In this document: positions 3,942-31,523 of the stretch, one piece after another | Numbering within the stretch: position 1 is the stretch's first letter | How the letters are laid out: each line of letters begins with the position of its first letter | Assembly: GCA_030614005.1 (NCBI GenBank) | Contig: JAUWKS010000020.1 | Location: forward strand, 22,034 to 54,033 | Direction: 5' to 3' | Source: Candidatus Heimdallarchaeota archaeon | Lineage (GTDB): Archaea; Asgardarchaeota; Heimdallarchaeia; JABLTI01 | DNA length: 32,000 nt | Program-made: the position numbers and the translations under genes | Notes under the pieces: model-generated | Databases searched by the model: none | What the model was told of the DNA's origin: nothing | What the model saw: only the letters and a program-made list of their open reading frames with translations

Positions 3942-4022
3942 ATTTCTTCATTCGAGACCATTTTTAAAAGCTATCAATAGTTCACTTTAGATAAAAAAAG
4001 AATGATTAGATAAAAGTTGGTA

Positions 4023-4727
4023 TTATCTTACTTCACAAACTTCAAAATTTGCTTTAATTTTTTCACAAGCATCTTCAAGAATACCTAAGCGAAATGGTTG
4101 AAGCTTTTCAAATTCCTTATCTAAACACTTCAAGGGTCTGAATTGTTGAATATACAATCGCTTTGCTCCTTTGATCATTTCCGCAATAATTGGAATATCA
4201 TGTTCAGGATCGATTATTGTAGGAACAACTGTTGTTCTAAATTCATAATCAATATCAGAATCAATTATGATTTTAATTGATTTCAGAATATTTTTGATGT
4301 TCACTTTCTTGCCAGCAGCGAGGTGATATTTCTCTGGAATTGCTTTAACATCCATAGCAATATAATCAAGCAATTTGTCATCAATAAGTTTCTGAATTAC
4401 ATCAGGATGATTACCATTGGTGTCAATTTTTGTTTTTAACCCCATTCCTTTGATAATTTTCAGAAAATCAGGCAATCGCTTACTGAGAGAAGGTTCTCCT
4501 CCAGTAATTGACACTCCATCCAGCCATTTGCTCTTTGATCTCTTTTCAATTTCTGCAAGAATTTCATTCGTATCAAAACTTTTTACAGCATCTAAAGGAA
4601 TTAAATCCGGATTGTGACAGAATGGACATCGAAAATCACATCCTGCAAGAAAGATACTATCTACAATTAGACCTGACCACTCAATAATTGAACCCTGTTT
4701 ATACCCCTTAATTTCAAGTCCTACCAA
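4023..4727 (-). CDS. nrdG: anaerobic ribonucleoside-triphosphate reductase activating enzyme (radical SAM)
   Basis: Radical SAM motif CDFRCPFC, plus SITGGEP, KIDTNG and YEFRTT; adjacent to nrdD. Confidence 0.92.
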   Translation of the reverse strand: MVGLEIKGYKQGSIIEWSGLIVDSIFLAGCDFRCPFCHNPDLIPLDAVKSFDTNEILAEIEKRSKSKWLDGVSITGGEPSLSKRLPDFLKIIKGMGLKTKIDTNGNHPDVIQKLIDDKLLDYIAMDVKAIPEKYHLAAGKKVNIKNILKSIKIIIDSDIDYEFRTTVVPTIIDPEHDIPIIAEMIKGAKRLYIQQFRPLKCLDKEFEKLQPFRLGILEDACEKIKANFEVCEVR

Positions 4728-4746
4728 TTATGTATTCAACTCGATT

Positions 4747-5007
4747 TTATTTTGCTTGAAGTTCTTTTTGAACTTGCTCTATTGGAGGTACTTCTCCTCT
4801 CCAAGCTTTAACTTCACTATCGGATTCATCGACAATAATCAAAGAAGGTGTTGAAAGAACATCAAAATAAACTGATTCTGATAAACCTTCTTCATCATCT
4901 AAATTGAACCACTCAACAACAGTACCTTTTTCTTCAAGTTTTTTTGCCATAGCTTTTGCTGGAGGGCAATTTGGACAATCTGCTTTTGTAAATACTTTTA
5001 ATTTCAT
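4747..5007 (-). CDS. thioredoxin/glutaredoxin (NrdH-like redoxin)
   Basis: CPNC active site and STP cis-Pro motif in 86 aa; GAGGA SD; lies between nrdD and nrdG. Confidence 0.85.
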   Translation of the reverse strand: MKLKVFTKADCPNCPPAKAMAKKLEEKGTVVEWFNLDDEEGLSESVYFDVLSTPSLIIVDESDSEVKAWRGEVPPIEQVQKELQAK

Positions 5008-5119
5008 TATCTATCTATCCTCAAATTTTTTTCTGTCTGTTTTACTATTAATCTAAAAAATAAATATAAAAAGATAAAGGAAGAGAAGAGGCGAACGAGG
5101 TTCGACCTGATCATGCACC

Positions 5120-5353
5120 CTACACGTCATCAGACCAATAATTGCCTTTTTGTCTTCTCTTTAACTCTGATTTCTTAGAGTTGTTCCAGTTATCAATTAT
5201 ACTAAAGTATCCTACTACCCTGCTAATACCGTAAACATTGTCGCTGTTACAGTATGGGCAATTAGGAGTAGAACACGTTTCACCTGCATGTTCTATATTT
5301 TGTTCTGTTGTTACTTCGGTTATTTTTGTTATAGTTGTTTTTGCCTGTTCCAT
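5120..5353 (-). CDS. nrdD: stand-alone C-terminal glycyl-radical segment of class III RNR (half Zn ribbon + RVVGY loop)
   Basis: CPYCNSDNVYGISRVVGYFSIIDNWNNSKKSELKRR matches the NrdD C-terminus. It has its own ATG with GAGGA 8 nt upstream and is in a different frame from the main nrdD ORF. Confidence 0.85.
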   Translation of the reverse strand: MEQAKTTITKITEVTTEQNIEHAGETCSTPNCPYCNSDNVYGISRVVGYFSIIDNWNNSKKSELKRRQKGNYWSDDV

Positions 5354-5421
5354 ACAATTTTTCCTCGATAGTTTATTTTTCTTTTTACGCCATTTTTCGA
5401 TTTGTTTTCTTTTTCAGCCCA

Positions 5422-7842
5422 CTATTGACCTTGTACAGAAGAACTTGTTGATCTGCCAAAGCCCCTACTAACTTGTCCACAATCTCTACAGACTGTAAAC
5501 TCTGGTGAAAACACTATCTGTGCGCTCTGGGTATTGTCCCATGTTTTCTTAACCAGATTCATTATTGATTCCGCCGAGGGTTTTTGCTCGCCGACGAATA
5601 TGTGTGTGATAGAACCGCTTTCAATGAGGGTATTGAATTTCCCTTGTTTTGAAATTCTATCAATAATATCAATAGGTGCATCAGCTGCGAAGTGTGCACT
5701 ATTGGTATAGTAAATTGATCCTTCGTCAATATCACCCTTGACATAATGAATACTGTCAGGATATTCCTTAAGATCAGTTCTCGCGAATTTAAAAGGAGCA
5801 CTTTCTCCTGGAGTTTCTTCAAGAGTAACAGTTAGACCATGTAGTTTTTGGAGAGCTTTTGCTTTTAGGTTCATTCCAGCAATAATCTTTAGGCCTAGTT
5901 TGTAGGCTTTTTCGCTGTCATGTTGTTCTTCATCAATAAGATATTGAACACATTCATTTAATCCTATAACGCCTATAATGTAAGTTGCTTTTTCCAAATC
6001 AACATAAGGTCTACCATCTTCAGCAATCATACCAATTTGCCAAAGGGTGCCATTTTCTTGAGTCATGAGTTGAGTAATGAATTCCTTCTTCTCAAGATGA
6101 GCTTCCATTGCTAAATCCATTGCTCGTCTAATTTCTTCAATTGTTTTCTTTACGTTACCTTTTCCGGCTCGATACGCTGCTTGTGGTAAATTAATGCTCA
6201 CATTTTGGAACCCACAATAACGCATGCTTTCAGGATGTTCAATCATATACATGTCAGTGATTGTTGTTTTTAATCGACAGCACATTGAAAGATTGATTTC
6301 ATCGCGATCAAATATGAAATAAGTTGAACCATTTTCAGAGGATATTTTACATGCCAGTTCCAACAATTTATACTGTTCAGGATCATCAAAGGAACTTTGA
6401 TCAATATGTAAATCAAATTTTGGAAATGGGAAGACTTTCGATTCAGAATCTCCTTCTAACCAAACTTCCATTAATGCTTTAGCAAATAATTGTGTTTCTT
6501 TTTCATACTCGCCATAATTTTTTCCAGTATATTTACCACCAGGGCCAATTGCGGGTATGTTTTTGAGATATCTTGGAATGCCTAAATGAATATTAAAATC
6601 TACAAAAAGGGTTTGTCCCCCTCTTGAGAACGCATTTTGACTGCAAGAATAAATCAATCGCTGTGCTTCTTGTTTTATTTGTTTATATGGGACACCAACA
6701 AAATAAGGGGCATAAAAGATATTCAGATAAGCTAATCCTAAAGCACCGGCATAATATGCTTGCATTGAAGCTAAGAAGGTATTAAGATGTCCAGTAAGAG
6801 TATCTGCATGATTTGCTGGGTTTGAAACGGTTGAGAGATTTAACAAGTTCAATCCATATTTTTTGATATATTCTAAGCTATGAGCAGAGCAATACACCCT
6901 GACTGGGAAACCCAAATCATGCAGGTAAATCATTCCTTTTCTGTGTGCATTTGCTACTTCCTTGGAGAAGAGCTCTTGAAGAGCAAATTTTTTCAATATT
7001 GCTTCTGCAATAGCTAAGTTCACCGCCTCTGGATTATTGGCGACTACGTTACTATTTTCTTTGCTTTTTGAAAGTATAAGTTGTTTAAGATCGAATGTGG
7101 GTATACCAATAGTTTTCTGTTGAACCAATTTAGTATTATACCCTCGAGTAAATAATTCATTATCAACCAAACTTCTGATAAAATCAACTGATATTACACC
7201 TATGCCAGATGCAAATATCTTTCTTTCAACTTCTATGGAAACAGAATCAGCATCTGCACGATTTAATCCTGCTTCTTTAACCAAAGCGGCAGTAATTTTT
7301 GTTCGGTCCCAACCAGAAATTTCCTCTCGAGTATCAGCTGATACCATTAACAGAAGTTCAGTAGAATCACGACTTTTCACATCTACTTCCTTTACTACTT
7401 TTAATTTCTCCAACTCACGTTCAAATGAAGCGATATCTGTGAATCGTCTATAAACTGAAGCATAACGAATATAAGCAACTTCATCGAGTCCTCGGAGTTT
7501 TTCCATAACTAATTCTCCTACGACACTAGCTTCAATTTCCAATTCTTCATTTTTTCTTAATTCACTTTCAATTTCATCTATAACGTCTTCAATTTCCTCA
7601 GAAGAAATAGGTCTTTTTTCGCAGGCTTTTACGATACCTTTTTTGACTTTCTCACGATCAAATGGTTCCCTACGTTTATCCTTCTTTACAATAGTAAGCT
7701 TCACTTGTTCTATTCGTTCATAAGTTGAAAATCGCTTTTTACATTGAAGACATTCTCTTCTTCGTCTATTTGCTTTCATGTCTTCTGACGCTCGTTTATC
7801 AACGACTCGAGTATTTGGCGATTGACAGTAAGGGCATTTCAT
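5422..7842 (-). CDS. nrdD: NrdR transcriptional repressor fused to class III (anaerobic) ribonucleotide reductase NrdD lacking the Gly-radical tail
   Basis: aa 1-147 are NrdR (CPYC..VVDKR..RRRRECLQCKKRFSTYE, ATP cone, VAYIRYASVYRRF). A second ATP cone (GWDRTKI) follows, then the NrdD core (YLHDLG, VYCSAH, SQNAFSRGGQ, FPFPKF, SMCCRL, EETPGES, YYTNS). The ORF ends after one CRDC knuckle. Confidence 0.93.
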   Translation of the reverse strand: MKCPYCQSPNTRVVDKRASEDMKANRRRRECLQCKKRFSTYERIEQVKLTIVKKDKRREPFDREKVKKGIVKACEKRPISSEEIEDVIDEIESELRKNEELEIEASVVGELVMEKLRGLDEVAYIRYASVYRRFTDIASFERELEKLKVVKEVDVKSRDSTELLLMVSADTREEISGWDRTKITAALVKEAGLNRADADSVSIEVERKIFASGIGVISVDFIRSLVDNELFTRGYNTKLVQQKTIGIPTFDLKQLILSKSKENSNVVANNPEAVNLAIAEAILKKFALQELFSKEVANAHRKGMIYLHDLGFPVRVYCSAHSLEYIKKYGLNLLNLSTVSNPANHADTLTGHLNTFLASMQAYYAGALGLAYLNIFYAPYFVGVPYKQIKQEAQRLIYSCSQNAFSRGGQTLFVDFNIHLGIPRYLKNIPAIGPGGKYTGKNYGEYEKETQLFAKALMEVWLEGDSESKVFPFPKFDLHIDQSSFDDPEQYKLLELACKISSENGSTYFIFDRDEINLSMCCRLKTTITDMYMIEHPESMRYCGFQNVSINLPQAAYRAGKGNVKKTIEEIRRAMDLAMEAHLEKKEFITQLMTQENGTLWQIGMIAEDGRPYVDLEKATYIIGVIGLNECVQYLIDEEQHDSEKAYKLGLKIIAGMNLKAKALQKLHGLTVTLEETPGESAPFKFARTDLKEYPDSIHYVKGDIDEGSIYYTNSAHFAADAPIDIIDRISKQGKFNTLIESGSITHIFVGEQKPSAESIMNLVKKTWDNTQSAQIVFSPEFTVCRDCGQVSRGFGRSTSSSVQGQ

Positions 7843-7971
7843 TATTCTAGTTCACTCGTTTTTTCTTAGGCACTATTTTCCTGCGCCGATTTTTATTTTG
7901 GCGTTTTATGTCGGTTCTAGGAGACGGTCTCACCTCTAAGCGAGTTTGTTTCCTTTACAGCCCACCCTATA

Positions 7972-7987
7972 CCACCACATCTGGTGG
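7972..7987. promoter_or_regulatory. NrdR box (proximal)
   Basis: CCACCACATCTGGTGG is a near-perfect 16-bp palindrome fitting the NrdR consensus acaCwAtATaTwGtgt. Confidence 0.8.
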
Positions 7988-8002
7988 TTTGTGGTCCCTC
8001 AA

Positions 8003-8018
8003 ACACAACATATTGTAT
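8003..8018. promoter_or_regulatory. NrdR box (distal)
   Basis: ACACAACATATTGTAT lies 31 bp start-to-start (15-bp spacer) from the other box, the canonical tandem NrdR arrangement. Confidence 0.8.
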
Positions 8019-8043
8019 ATGTTATTTGTTTCTGAACGCTTTG

Positions 8044-8051
8044 TATTTAAA
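8044..8051 (-). promoter_or_regulatory. TATA box of the nrdR-nrdD transcript (candidate)
   Basis: TTTAAATA on the minus strand predicts a start near 8020, immediately before the distal NrdR box. An alternative TTATAAAA lies near 8070-8077. Confidence 0.5.
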
Positions 8052-8182
8052 TGTTATGTGAATGAGAATTTTTATAAGAATAAATAATCATCTATAAAAA
8101 TCAAAAAATAGTTCACCAAATTTTTTTTCACTCGGATAACTTGTAAAACAAAAAAAGAGAAAATGTCCTATAAATATTTCAT

Positions 8183-9949
8183 CTACAGAACAGTTACGGA
8201 TTTGGCCAAGTTTCTAGGAAAATCAGGATCATTTCCGCGAAGTATAGAAAGATGATAAGCAATTAACTGCAGAATAGGAATTATAACAATTGGTTCAAGA
8301 GCAACTTTTGCTAGAGGGATATAATGATCAAAGATGTCTAGCTTTTCAGAGGAAATGCCGATTATAATTCCACCACGAGCTTTGATCTGCATAATGTTAT
8401 TGATCATATCATCTTTAGTTTCATCATTTGGAACGAGTGCAATGCATGATACACCAGGTTCAATAAGTGCAAGAGTATGATGTTTTAATTCACCACCTGC
8501 CAGAGCATCAGCGTGAATATAGGCAATTTCCTTAATTTTAAGTTCGCCTTCCATTGCAACTGGAAAAGCAACTCCACGTCCAATTAGAAATAAATTTTGT
8601 TTATTCAGAACCTCTTTAGATAACTCCTTGATAAAATCAGATTGTTTCATTATAATCTCAAATTGAAAAATTACTTCATTGAGGTGTTCTTTACCTTCTG
8701 CAAGTTGATTGTTTAAAGCATATGCTAACATCACCAAAATAAGTACTTGAGAGGTGAAAGCTTTCGTTGAAGCAACAGCAATTTCAGGGCCAGCGTTTAA
8801 AGTAAGAAATTGTTCGGACTCACGCATAATAGTACTACCCATAACATTTACTAAAGAAACAACTTTTGCACCTTTGCTTTTGGCAATTTTAATTCCTTCC
8901 AAAACATCTGCAGTTTCACCAGATTGACTAATGGCGAAAAGAACTGTTTCGTTATCAAACAAATTCTGATAGGTTTTAAATTCAGACCCTAAAATAGGCA
9001 TGAAGTTTCGATGGCAAAGTTTAGCAAAATAAATCGATGCTATGAGACAAGCACGATAAGAAGTTCCAGAACCGAGAAAATAGACATTTTTTGCTTGGGT
9101 CAACAAGGTAACAAGTTCAGCTAATTTTGCTGGATCTTGATCCAATGCTTGCTTTGAAACCTCAGCTTCTTCAAATATTTCCTTTAGCATGAAATGTGGA
9201 TAACCATCTTTTGTGGCTTGCTCTGCAGTCCAGTCGATTGTAGATATTTCCTTCTTAATTTCTTTACCTGCTGCTAAATCATAAATTGTGCATTCATCAT
9301 TTAGGATTGCTAATTCATAGTTCTCTAAAATAATTGCTTTATTTGTATATTCTAAGAAGGAAGTCATATCAGATGAAGCGAAGAATTCATTTTCACCAAC
9401 GCCAATAATTAGTGGAGAATCCTTTCTAAAACAATAAATATCACCTGATTTTTTACTTAACAATAAGAAAGTGAAAGCTCCTTTTGCTTGTTCAGAAGTT
9501 TCCTTTATTGCTTTGATTATATCTTTGGCTTGTTTCATATTTTCTTCTATTAAATGAACTAAGACTTCAGTATCTGTTGTTGATGTAAAATGGTGTCCTT
9601 TTTCTACTAATTGTCTTTTCAATTCAACATAATTTTCTAAAATGCCATTGTGTACAAGAGCATATTCACCATCACAAGATGTAAAAGGATGGGCATTTTC
9701 CATCGTTACATTGCCATGAGTTGCCCAACGAGTATGAGCAATGCCTACTTTTCCTGTTAAAGATAAGAAATCAACTTTAGCATTTACTCGCTCAATTCGT
9801 CCTGTTCCTTTTCTAACAACTATAATATTATTTCCATTTAAAGAGGCCATACCACAGGAGTCATAACCACGATATTCTAATCGTTTCAATGAAGCCAGTA
9901 ATATTGGTGAGGCCTTTTGCTTTCCTGTATAACCGATTATTCCGCACAT
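8183..9949 (-). CDS. glmS: glutamine--fructose-6-phosphate aminotransferase (isomerizing)
   Basis: The true start is MCGIIGY (Ntn Cys) at 9949 with a GAGGA SD. Motifs: RGYDS, HTRWATHG, HNGI, SQSGET, AVASTKAF, C-terminal PRNLAKSVTV. Confidence 0.97.
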   Translation of the reverse strand: MCGIIGYTGKQKASPILLASLKRLEYRGYDSCGMASLNGNNIIVVRKGTGRIERVNAKVDFLSLTGKVGIAHTRWATHGNVTMENAHPFTSCDGEYALVHNGILENYVELKRQLVEKGHHFTSTTDTEVLVHLIEENMKQAKDIIKAIKETSEQAKGAFTFLLLSKKSGDIYCFRKDSPLIIGVGENEFFASSDMTSFLEYTNKAIILENYELAILNDECTIYDLAAGKEIKKEISTIDWTAEQATKDGYPHFMLKEIFEEAEVSKQALDQDPAKLAELVTLLTQAKNVYFLGSGTSYRACLIASIYFAKLCHRNFMPILGSEFKTYQNLFDNETVLFAISQSGETADVLEGIKIAKSKGAKVVSLVNVMGSTIMRESEQFLTLNAGPEIAVASTKAFTSQVLILVMLAYALNNQLAEGKEHLNEVIFQFEIIMKQSDFIKELSKEVLNKQNLFLIGRGVAFPVAMEGELKIKEIAYIHADALAGGELKHHTLALIEPGVSCIALVPNDETKDDMINNIMQIKARGGIIIGISSEKLDIFDHYIPLAKVALEPIVIIPILQLIAYHLSILRGNDPDFPRNLAKSVTVL

Positions 9950-31437: not shown

Positions 31438-31485
31438 TTAAGGCGATATATTGATAGTACAATGTATGCTTAGGGCGATATATTG
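31438..31485 (+). promoter_or_regulatory. 16-bp direct repeat pair TTA(A/G)GGCGATATATTG, 32 bp apart, downstream of a TATA box
   Basis: Copies at 31438-31453 and 31470-31485 are 15/16 identical; TTATATAT lies at 31428-31435. Confidence 0.55.
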
Positions 31486-31523
31486 GGTCTATGGATAATT
31501 TAAGAAATAAAAAAATTACTAAG

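Follow-up and report, generated by a model that had tools for sequence, protein, structure and literature searches.

Whether a ribonucleotide reductase (RNR) can act as the repressor of its own operon is the question raised by an 806-aa open reading frame (ORF) of Candidatus Heimdallarchaeota archaeon, in which the repressor NrdR and the anaerobic enzyme NrdD share one polypeptide. NrdR and the ATP-cone of RNR have been treated as distinct applications of a shared nucleotide-sensing domain, and here the two are merged. The fusion is a direct test case for a single cone that might govern DNA binding as well as enzyme inhibition, and it raises the question of how an NrdR tetramer assembles when every protomer bears a large enzyme. 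We analyzed the surrounding 32,000 nucleotides (nt), hereafter the window (GCA_030614005.1, contig JAUWKS010000020.1, 22,034-54,033 of the forward strand), and all coordinates below are those of the window.

The nrd operon and its enzyme inventory

The nrd operon occupies 4023-8051 on the minus strand and encodes four proteins.

5422..7842, minus strand, large-subunit gene, 806 aa in a single frame: NrdR, linker, degenerate cone and NrdD barrel
5120..5353, minus strand, small-subunit gene, 77 aa, with the second CxxC (C32, C35) and RVVGY, G48 at 5210-5212
4747..5007, minus strand, thioredoxin-like protein, 86 aa, with CPNC (PF13192 and TIGR00411 matches)
4023..4727, minus strand, NrdG activase, radical SAM (TIGR02495, NrdG2, 192.9 bits, cut-off 131.15)

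The cognate radical-SAM activase NrdG is thus encoded within the same operon as NrdD. The thioredoxin-like gene is found at the same position in bacterial and archaeal relatives, and its product is the likely reductant of the RNR. In the source genome no other RNR was found, and the search for another NrdR with TIGR00244 returned the fused ORF alone. In addition, no class I or class II RNR was found among 12 searched genomes of this Heimdall family, which are 64-92% complete. Judged by this gene content, the organism has no ribonucleotide reductase besides the one of this operon, which is of class III (anaerobic) and consists of two polypeptides.

A complete NrdR at the N-terminus

The earlier note on this DNA had read aa 1-147 of the single 806-aa ORF as a complete NrdR. 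This reading held, because TIGR00244 (NrdR, NCBIfam) matched over its full length (profile 1-147/147) with 196.2 bits against a cut-off of 124.65. NrdR is not a free-standing protein of about 150-200 aa here but is fused in frame to NrdD.

7717..7842, minus strand, NrdR zinc ribbon, aa 1-42 (PF22811, Zn_ribbon_NrdR; C3, C6, C31, C34)
7435..7695, minus strand, NrdR ATP-cone, aa 50-136 (Pfam ATP-cone, 80.9 bits, profile positions 2-87/88)

The DNA-contact residues of the NrdR zinc ribbon defined in PMC9110341 (R12, D15, R17, R26-R29 and R37) are all present in the protein, and the contacts are nearly invariant across 61 fused proteins, R27-29 and R37 being kept in 61/61 and R17 in 60/61. The E. 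coli NrdR structures 9FVR/9FXK align gaplessly with the module (E 4e-41), and through this gapless alignment the nucleotide-site residues K53, K54, E59, K65 and Y131 correspond to K50, R51, E56, K62 and Y128 of S. coelicolor NrdR.

Authenticity and distribution of the fusion

The source is a metagenome-assembled genome of 3.6 Mb in 126 contigs, and in such a source a stop codon lost, or a frameshift introduced, during sequencing or assembly might produce the fusion or the split C-terminus described below. The absence of a stop at the NrdR/NrdD junction was confirmed: Logan contigs from three studies bridge the junction without indels (X1, 6466-8148; X2, 6833-7917; X5, 7285-7718). Contigs of the three studies likewise run across the junction of the split C-terminus with no indels. 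More than 100 protein clusters, drawn from independent assemblies, and 29 species-representative archaeal loci show the same architecture. Depending on lineage, the small ORF takes any of the possible frames or overlaps the large ORF, each time with its own start codon. An artefact is refuted by these observations, and its remaining probability is negligible. From the comparison across assemblies, we consider the fusion genuine and under selection.

The earlier note had suggested searching for fusions with co-occurring boxes in Asgard and other archaea. Rarity of the fusion was not supported: the search found it in many DPANN archaea and in a single Heimdall family, with boxes and TATA box conserved in Asgard-type and Nanohalarchaeota loci. 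It is the usual form in this archaeal clade, whereas the bacterial sisters have adjacent but separate nrdR and nrdD genes, with NrdR boxes upstream of the separate nrdR. The bacterial counts of a separate nrdR are lower bounds, since non-ATG starts left some loci scored as having no nrdR seen. Among close archaeal relatives, the Woesearchaeota loci L079, L087 and L094 also have separate nrdR and nrdD genes. This distribution suggests that the fusion derives from an ordinary autoregulated nrdR-nrdD operon. The Asgard lineage probably acquired its operon horizontally. The fusion itself is real and common in uncultured archaea.

NrdR is present in 22% of archaeal genomes according to PMC13584703, and a 2025 preprint reports no archaeal NrdR orthologues. 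In the literature searched, the coverage of which was incomplete, neither an NrdR-NrdD fusion nor a split-off radical subunit of NrdD was found described. In databases, the fused proteins are labelled either 'anaerobic ribonucleoside-triphosphate reductase' or 'transcriptional regulator NrdR', and each of these current labels misses half of the protein.

The linker and the second ATP-cone

7318..7407, minus strand, flexible linker of about 30 aa (146-175), pLDDT <50
7138..7314, minus strand, degenerate ATP-cone remnant, aa 177-235 (22.5 bits, profile 12-72/88)

The linker, which the earlier note had put at 12-15 aa, is about twice that length. Its disorder was the only feature taken from a full-length AF2 model built from a 19-sequence alignment (mean pLDDT 66.7, pTM 0.53); the model was uninformative on how the NrdR module packs. 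Alignment A2 shows that the pattern LKV.K.V...STDL.LLV is common to the linker of the fused protein and to unfused relatives, and by this alignment the linker and the segment between the two cones of unfused NrdD are homologous.

The second ATP-cone in the ORF proved to be a degenerate remnant. The remnant scored below the Pfam ATP-cone cut-off of 25.8 bits, covered only part of the profile and lacks the K-R-D-G hairpin, with MVSADT at the KRDG position. Unfused relatives have a canonical cone 1 (94.2 bits in the unfused P0104) followed by the same degenerate cone 2. In alignment A2 the NrdR cone replaces cone 1 on the same linker, and the functional N-terminal ATP-cone that unfused members of the clade carry in NrdD is absent from the fused protein. 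Because the NrdR cone stands at the site of the functional activity cone of unfused relatives and the second cone is degenerate, the protein has one sensor and not the two through which dNTP pools were proposed to be read. Aa 50-136 is, on its residues and profile scores, the sole intact nucleotide sensor of the 806-aa protein.

The linker, predicted to be disordered, is also where the NrdR module could be released, either by proteolysis or by separate translation, to work as an ordinary free repressor, in which case the fusion would serve co-production only. The working form known for NrdR is a free protein (PMC9110341), and the three Woesearchaeota loci named above keep the genes apart. Separate translation from an internal start at Met166, as raised in the earlier note, was rejected because the position is not conserved (L, M, F or Q, and L, F or Q in most relatives), and no conserved internal Met or other start was seen at the junction, where no assembly has a stop or frameshift. 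Moreover, the linker is homologous to one that is, as far as known, uncleaved in unfused NrdD, and release of the module would leave the enzyme with no intact cone. We regard release as unlikely, and self-repression by the full-length protein as the better reading.

Promoter and NrdR boxes

8044..8051, minus strand, archaeal TATA box of the nrd operon, TTTAAATA (8/8 match to TTTAWATA)
8003..8018, minus strand, NrdR box 1, ATACAATATGTTGTGT (6/6 conserved positions)
7972..7987, minus strand, NrdR box 2, CCACCAGATGTGGTGG (6/6 conserved positions; 15-bp linker at 7988-8002)
7843..7971, minus strand, leader of 129 nt from box 2 to the start codon (fold z-score -2.27)

From the usual archaeal TATA-to-start distance, transcription presumably starts near 8021, and the boxes would span roughly +4 to +50 of an archaeal promoter that is conserved. 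That two NrdR boxes lie in the leader was fully supported. When the conserved positions defined in PMC13584703 (C4, A6, A8, T9, T11 and G13) were scored, the pair at 7972-8018, with 16-bp boxes spaced within the 15-16 bp expected at an RNR promoter, matched at 12/12. Among 4000 random 250-nt windows no pair at 12/12 turned up, and the probability of at least 11/12 was 0.0015; in the whole 3.6-Mb genome two box pairs reached 12/12. A position weight matrix made from the boxes of relatives and those of the window itself scored the pair here at 40.4 bits, against 23.6 bits for the runner-up. Genome-wide scans for other targets of the fused NrdR, with this matrix and with the literature-defined positions, yielded no second convincing pair.

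In the window 25 nt separate the TATA box from box 1 downstream of it, and this layout is kept in relatives. The distance from box 1 to a perfect TATA box upstream was 25-26 nt in 10/10 Asgard-type loci and 25-27 nt in Nanohalarchaeota loci; box 2 scores 4-5 of 6 in several Asgard relatives. The leader measures 51 to 135 nt in Asgard relatives and 28 nt in Nanohalarchaeota. At 129 nt it exceeds what is usual in archaea, and another promoter may lie nearer the ATG. The fold z-score of the leader is mostly due to the palindromic boxes. A riboswitch was considered as well and rejected: the Rfam scan of 4000-9000 at E<=1 found no family in the leader and gave only a chance snoRNA-like match (E 0.6).

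These data bear on the view that the NrdR module is an allosteric or oligomerization domain only, which has replaced cone 1, with DNA binding and boxes left as relics. The NrdR cone does stand exactly where the functional activity cone is found in unfused relatives, and dATP tetramerizes Prevotella copri NrdD through its ATP-cones (PMC11226230). Nevertheless, the four Cys together with RRRR, R17 and R37 are kept in 60-61 of the 61 fused proteins, and 10-12 of the 12 box positions and the fixed 25-26-nt distance to the TATA box are kept across lineages whose proteins are 55-98% identical. Such retention is not what relics would predict, and we consider this view improbable, somewhat more so than release of the module; the retained residues and boxes fit self-repression better.

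The NrdD barrel and the split glycyl-radical subunit

5470..7059, minus strand, NrdD catalytic barrel, aa 262-791 (PF13597, NRDD, profile 1-517/562)
5479..5490, minus strand, C-terminal zinc site, first CxxC (C785, C788), 18 residues before the end of the large ORF

The presence of NrdD was upheld by PF13597 and by TIGR02487 (346.9 bits against the 806-aa ORF, cut-off 326.35), but not the completeness of NrdD in one polypeptide, because the radical domain is a separate subunit. The barrel has the CCRL radical loop (C521, C522), which aligns with SCCRL of T. maritima NrdD, and C318, and these residues are invariant in alignment A1. Unsplit relatives run on from the first CxxC into the second CxxC and RVVGY. 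Here the large ORF covers TIGR02487 positions 1-537/581 and the 77-aa ORF covers 537-580/581, so that the glycyl-radical domain (second CxxC and RVxGY) is not on the large ORF and is supplied by 5120-5353. The 77-aa ORF starts at an ATG of its own, preceded by GAGG, and follows after a gap of 68 nt in a frame different from that of the large ORF. The split is conserved in 23 fused loci, in which the small ORF may be in any frame or overlap the large one (ATGA), with its own start codon. An intron, an intein and a programmed frameshift at the split were rejected on this gap, the separate start signals and the variable frame in relatives. The Heimdall family has two further paralogues of the radical subunit, unlinked to the operon, and no NrdR boxes were found upstream of these two.

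When the large subunit (aa 262-806) was modelled with the small ORF, the complex scored 0.90 and the best control 0.00; the mark for such models was reached by 51/78 solved complexes and 2/108 mismatched pairs. The runs share at least 80% of contacts, with a partner pLDDT of 71, although the pass may reflect mere likeness to solved single-chain NrdD structures. Among the modelled contacts, C785/C788 meet C32/C35, and residues 470-472 and 522-523 meet the region around G48. The small subunit is thus predicted to dock on the large one via a zinc site shared 2+2 between the chains. With the CCRL loop, C318, NrdG and the glycyl-radical subunit all encoded, the enzyme looks active. So short a subunit is easily overlooked in annotation, and without it the enzyme would look dead.

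A proposed model of self-repression

The genuine fusion, the kept DNA- and nucleotide-binding residues, the correctly placed boxes, and the fact that this is the genome's sole NrdR, sole RNR and sole strong box pair make self-repression the best reading. Catalytic and sequence-specific DNA-binding domains are both matched within one polypeptide, and the operators are conserved at the RNR promoter. We put at roughly 0.6 the probability that the fused enzyme represses its own operon, with NrdR replacing the usual N-terminal activity cone. Of the earlier note's self-repressing trigger enzyme, the self-repression is retained on comparative evidence (residues, operators, uniqueness), and the sensing through two cones is not.

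The order of events may have been as follows. An in-frame fusion within an autoregulated nrdR-nrdD operon would have cost NrdD its functional ATP-cone and placed that of NrdR on the existing inter-cone linker. As we infer from free NrdR, a rise of dATP relative to ATP would make two NrdD dimers join through their NrdR cones into an NrdR-type tetramer. With its two zinc-ribbon pairs bound to boxes 1 and 2, a short way downstream of the TATA box, this tetramer would block the recruitment of RNA polymerase, so that the enzyme would repress its own operon. Since the only intact cone is at the activity-site position, the same nucleotide binding would probably lower catalytic activity too, which is the least certain step. 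Some points speak against self-repression. A protein that has to be abundant as an enzyme would be an unusual choice of repressor for one operator, and the dodecamers, octamers and filaments of free NrdR may be sterically impossible with a 75-kDa enzyme attached.

A more extended reading, which we hold only tentatively and rate as doubtful, is that one NrdR-type cone is both the off-switch of the enzyme and the trigger of operator binding, and that the radical domain of the Heimdall family is an exchangeable cartridge with three paralogues. If this were true, one nucleotide-binding event in one polypeptide would govern both catalysis and transcription of the cell's only RNR, and three copies of the radical domain would let an oxygen-damaged enzyme be repaired or differently regulated.

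Comparison with known systems

Free NrdR (S. coelicolor 7P37/7P3F; E. coli 9FVR/9FXK) has the same full-length zinc ribbon and ATP-cone, with the same contact and nucleotide residues, and recognizes the same 16-bp boxes, spaced by 15 bp, where an RNR operon begins; it often represses its own operon too (PMC9110341). It is, however, a free protein of about 150 aa, whereas here it is the N-terminus of the enzyme regulated, and its large ATP-loaded oligomers may be unable to form. Its promoters are of the sigma-70 type, whereas the one here is archaeal (TATA/BRE); the sequence would place a bacterial-type repressor on an archaeal TATA promoter in an Asgard lineage.

Operons of the form nrdR-nrdD-(grd)-trx-nrdG occur in Brocadia, Omnitrophota, Clostridia and Atribacterota, and in some Woesearchaeota. 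Their NrdD belongs to the same clade (about 54-56% identity), their genes come in the same order and include the thioredoxin-like gene and the NrdG2 activase, and NrdR boxes precede nrdR. They differ in that nrdR is separate (148-169 aa) and NrdD keeps a canonical cone ahead of the degenerate one, which is the cone lost here.

Prevotella copri NrdD (8P23, 8P28) is also a class III RNR with an N-terminal cone, which senses ATP and dATP; dATP favors cone-joined tetramers of two dimers and disorders the glycyl-radical domain (PMC11226230). Unlike the present protein, it has no DNA-binding zinc ribbon, is a single chain and belongs to a different subclass (E 4e-17, over part of the barrel). By analogy, the fused cone could plausibly influence activity and assembly in the same manner.

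PutA and BirA are trigger enzymes, in which the chain that acts as a metabolic enzyme also represses the genes of its pathway, with a pathway metabolite as the switch. The folds are unrelated to those described here, and the switch lies in the chemistry of substrate or product at the active site, whereas here it would be an allosteric ATP/dATP cone.

GrcA/YfiD is a small free-standing spare glycyl-radical domain of pyruvate formate-lyase (PFL), which can complement a large catalytic subunit. Its format, a glycyl-radical motif only on a free-standing protein, matches the 77-aa ORF and its two unlinked paralogues. GrcA repairs a PFL that is otherwise complete and has been cleaved by oxygen. Unlike PFL, the large subunit here never has a radical domain of its own, and the small subunit adds half a zinc site.

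An NrdR-NrdD fusion in a single reading frame

The proposal of the earlier note that a complete NrdR is joined to the class III ribonucleotide reductase NrdD in one ORF was borne out. Both NCBIfam models matched the 806-aa frame above cut-off, NrdR over its full length at aa 1-147 (196.2 bits, cut-off 124.65) and NrdD at aa 261-792 (346.9 bits, cut-off 326.35), and residues 1-147 aligned without gaps to the structures solved for E. coli NrdR (E about 4e-41).

Genes and domains of the operon
5422-7842, minus strand: NrdR-NrdD large-subunit ORF, single frame, 806 aa (ORF call)
aa 1-42 of the 806-aa ORF: NrdR zinc ribbon (Pfam)
aa 50-136 of the 806-aa ORF: ATP-cone of the NrdR module (Pfam)
aa 262-791 of the 806-aa ORF: NRDD barrel (Pfam)
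5120-5353, minus strand: small-subunit ORF, 77 aa, downstream of the large ORF
4747-5007, minus strand: downstream thioredoxin-like gene (family-model match)
4023-4727, minus strand: downstream NrdG2-type activase gene (family-model match)

The fusion is not an artefact, and we give virtually no weight to an assembly or sequencing error. Logan contigs of marine-sediment and cold-seep metagenomes, drawn from three studies, span the NrdR/NrdD junction without insertions or deletions and also cross the stretch that separates the large ORF from the small one; one of the bridging runs may be the source sample. The wider search for such fusions, also suggested in the earlier note, was equally positive: zinc ribbon, ATP-cone and NRDD barrel occur together in more than 100 protein clusters from Heimdall and other Asgard, Aenigmatarchaeota, Micrarchaeota, Woesearchaeota and Nanohalarchaeota assemblies. 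Four fused and unfused relatives (P0060, P0061, P0074 and P0111; 940-1383 aa) carry inteins (PF14528, PF14890) inside the NrdD barrel. A second type of NrdR-NrdD fusion, from a different NrdD clade and with an unsplit C-terminus, was seen in P0095, P0097 and P0101 (Woesearchaeota and others), where a fully canonical ATP-cone (93.7 bits) comes after NrdR, giving two intact cones.

In the S. coelicolor NrdR-DNA complex, R12, R26-29 and R37 contact the backbone and D15 and R17 the major groove (PMC9110341). All of these residues are present in the 806-aa protein. In a set of 61 fused proteins that share this numbering, there is no variation at the four Cys, R27-29 or R37; R17 is kept in 60, and position 15 is D or E in 60. 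K53, K54, E59, K65 and Y131 correspond to the S. coelicolor nucleotide-site residues K50, R51, E56, K62 and Y128. By these residues the NrdR module looks functional. Such a module might also act as free NrdR, the form in which NrdR is treated in the literature searched, after release from the fused protein; we consider such release unlikely.

One intact ATP-cone

The earlier note counted two ATP-cones as sensors, of which only that of NrdR stands as intact. Taken alone, aa 150-262 scored 22.5 bits against the Pfam ATP-cone, under the cut-off of 25.8, covering only profile positions 12-72 of 88, and its nucleotide-binding hairpin reads MVSADT in place of the expected KRDG. Judged by its sequence, this second cone is no more than a remnant. 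In unfused proteins of the same NrdD clade a canonical cone (94 bits in one of them, P0104) comes first, followed by the same kind of degenerate cone and the barrel, an order that holds in bacteria (Omnitrophota, Brocadia, Atribacterota, Clostridia) and archaea (Woesearchaeota). When fused and unfused relatives were aligned, the NrdR cone fell column-for-column on the canonical cone, and the inter-cone linker LKV.K.V...STDL.LLV ran on unchanged; the fusion therefore appears to have replaced the activity cone with NrdR, leaving one intact sensor in the activity-site position.

Operators and promoter

An NrdR site consists of two 16-bp boxes 15-16 bp apart, in which C4, A6, A8, T9, T11 and G13 are highly conserved (PMC13584703).

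Promoter elements of the operon
8044-8051, minus strand: perfect archaeal TATA box TTTAAATA, ending 25 nt before box 1
8003-8018, minus strand: NrdR box 1 ATACAATATGTTGTGT, 6/6 conserved positions
7972-7987, minus strand: NrdR box 2 CCACCAGATGTGGTGG, 6/6 conserved positions, 15-bp linker from box 1

Only two pairs in the whole 3.6-Mb genome, that of the operon included, reach 12/12, and 12/12 was not seen in any of 4000 random windows of 250 nt, 0.15% of which reached 11/12. With a weight matrix the operon pair scored 40.4 bits against 23.6 bits for the next-best genome pair, a partly circular comparison since the matrix was trained on this pair as well as on the boxes of relatives. The other 12/12 pair (31441-31488), immediately upstream of an ORF whose start is near 31492, is a direct repeat of AGGCGATATATTG (two copies, 32-bp period); because it lacks the CAC/GTG arms, it is probably a chance match or another regulator's site. 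Elsewhere in the genome, G000:C73:89340-89355 holds one very good NrdR-type box, ACACTATATCTAGTAT, with a weak partner 31 bp away.

The arrangement recurs in relatives. In all 10 Asgard-type loci box 1 has a perfect TATA box 25-26 nt upstream, and the pairs score 10-12/12; five Nanohalarchaeota-type loci score 12/12, with a spacing of 25-27 nt. A purely allosteric NrdR module, which the position of its cone might suit, would make these operators relics, and we regard this as improbable.

Archaeal repressors block polymerase recruitment from about the +4 to +50 region. The usual archaeal TATA-to-start distance places the transcription start near 8021, so the boxes should span about +4 to +50. 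This predicted position fits the rule for bacteria, in which NrdR boxes overlap the transcription start (PMC9110341). At 129 nt, the leader that follows box 2 (7843-7971) is long for an archaeon. It matched no Rfam family, and the closest relative, L001, is the only one in which it is conserved; the other Asgard relatives have another leader in common, in which a GGTTAGTAC stretch is conserved.

In the source genome (90% complete) we found one NrdR, one NrdD barrel and no class I/II large subunit, and the latter was also absent from the other 11 family genomes searched (64-92% complete). Because its sole target would be its own gene, the repressor may have no need to diffuse, and the fusion was perhaps tolerated for that reason.

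A split enzyme with additional radical subunits

Of the C-terminal zinc site, the large ORF has the first CxxC (C785, C788) and stops 18 residues past it. The second CxxC (C32, C35) and the RVVGY radical motif are on the 77-aa ORF, which is read in a different frame and has an ATG of its own with GAGG upstream. The same break was found in 23 fused and seven unfused loci with the small ORF next door, in any frame or with an ATGA overlap, and a few relatives are unsplit (890-899 aa). Modeled with zinc, aa 262-806 and the small ORF scored 0.90 (best control 0.00); of 78 solved complexes 51 attained that mark, as did 2 of 108 mismatched pairs. This pass may only mirror likeness to solved single-chain NrdD structures. 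At least 80% of contacts agreed between runs (partner pLDDT 71). In the model C785/C788 face C32/C35, and the region around Gly48 faces residues 470-472 and 522-523 of the CCRL loop. With the same reservation, the two chains are predicted to assemble via the C-terminal zinc site.

Two more small-subunit copies lie unlinked on other contigs of the source genome (G000:C103:22543-22701, minus strand; G000:C110:63714-63914, plus strand). Both keep the CxxC and RVVGY motifs, making three paralogous glycyl-radical subunits against one NrdD large subunit. The other 11 family genomes have 1-3 copies each (two or three in 10), whereas nine neighboring-family genomes have none and five DPANN genomes with split enzymes have the operon copy only. 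We speculate that the extra copies could be spare parts or alternative radical cartridges, with GrcA as a parallel for the spare role.

Origin of the fusion

Among 86 non-redundant loci of this NrdD clade, drawn from species-representative genomes, 29 are fused, all archaeal, and at least 41 have a separate nrdR (148-169 aa) directly upstream. Bacterial operons have box pairs of 11-12/12 upstream of nrdR, and the ancestral state was therefore presumably an autoregulated nrdR-nrdD operon. In a quick maximum-likelihood tree of the barrel (86 rows), every fused row fell within an archaeal group of 38, which was separated with SH-aLRT 100 from a bacterial group of 48 rows that contains no fusion; the well-supported branches are compatible with the fusion having arisen once. 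The Asgard rows, nine in all, make up one supported clade surrounded by DPANN rows. Since only 4 of the 200 Asgard genomes sampled have an NrdR above cut-off, horizontal acquisition of the operon by the Asgard lineage would fit. One Bathyarchaeota locus (L019:3001-3447 and downstream) stands one step short of fusion: the stop of its separate 148-aa nrdR overlaps (ATGA) the start of an nrdD with a canonical cone, with NrdR-like boxes upstream.

Proposed mechanism and comparison with known systems

The literature searched gives the archaeal presence of NrdR as none, rare or 22% of genomes, and no paper found there mentions an NrdR-NrdD fusion or a split radical subunit. A bifunctional enzyme-repressor is the best-supported reading, and we put autorepression by the uncleaved protein at about 60%. 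Rising dATP would favor an NrdR-type association between two NrdD dimers through their N-terminal cones; two zinc-ribbon pairs would thereby come to lie on the tandem boxes, and the operon would be shut off. The fusion offers a ready-made test of how a single ATP-cone could act in both transcription and catalysis. Added control of activity by this cone is a more tentative proposal, in which the cone would gate the enzyme as the ATP-cones of P. copri NrdD do, where dATP favors tetramers and disorders the radical domain (PMC11226230).
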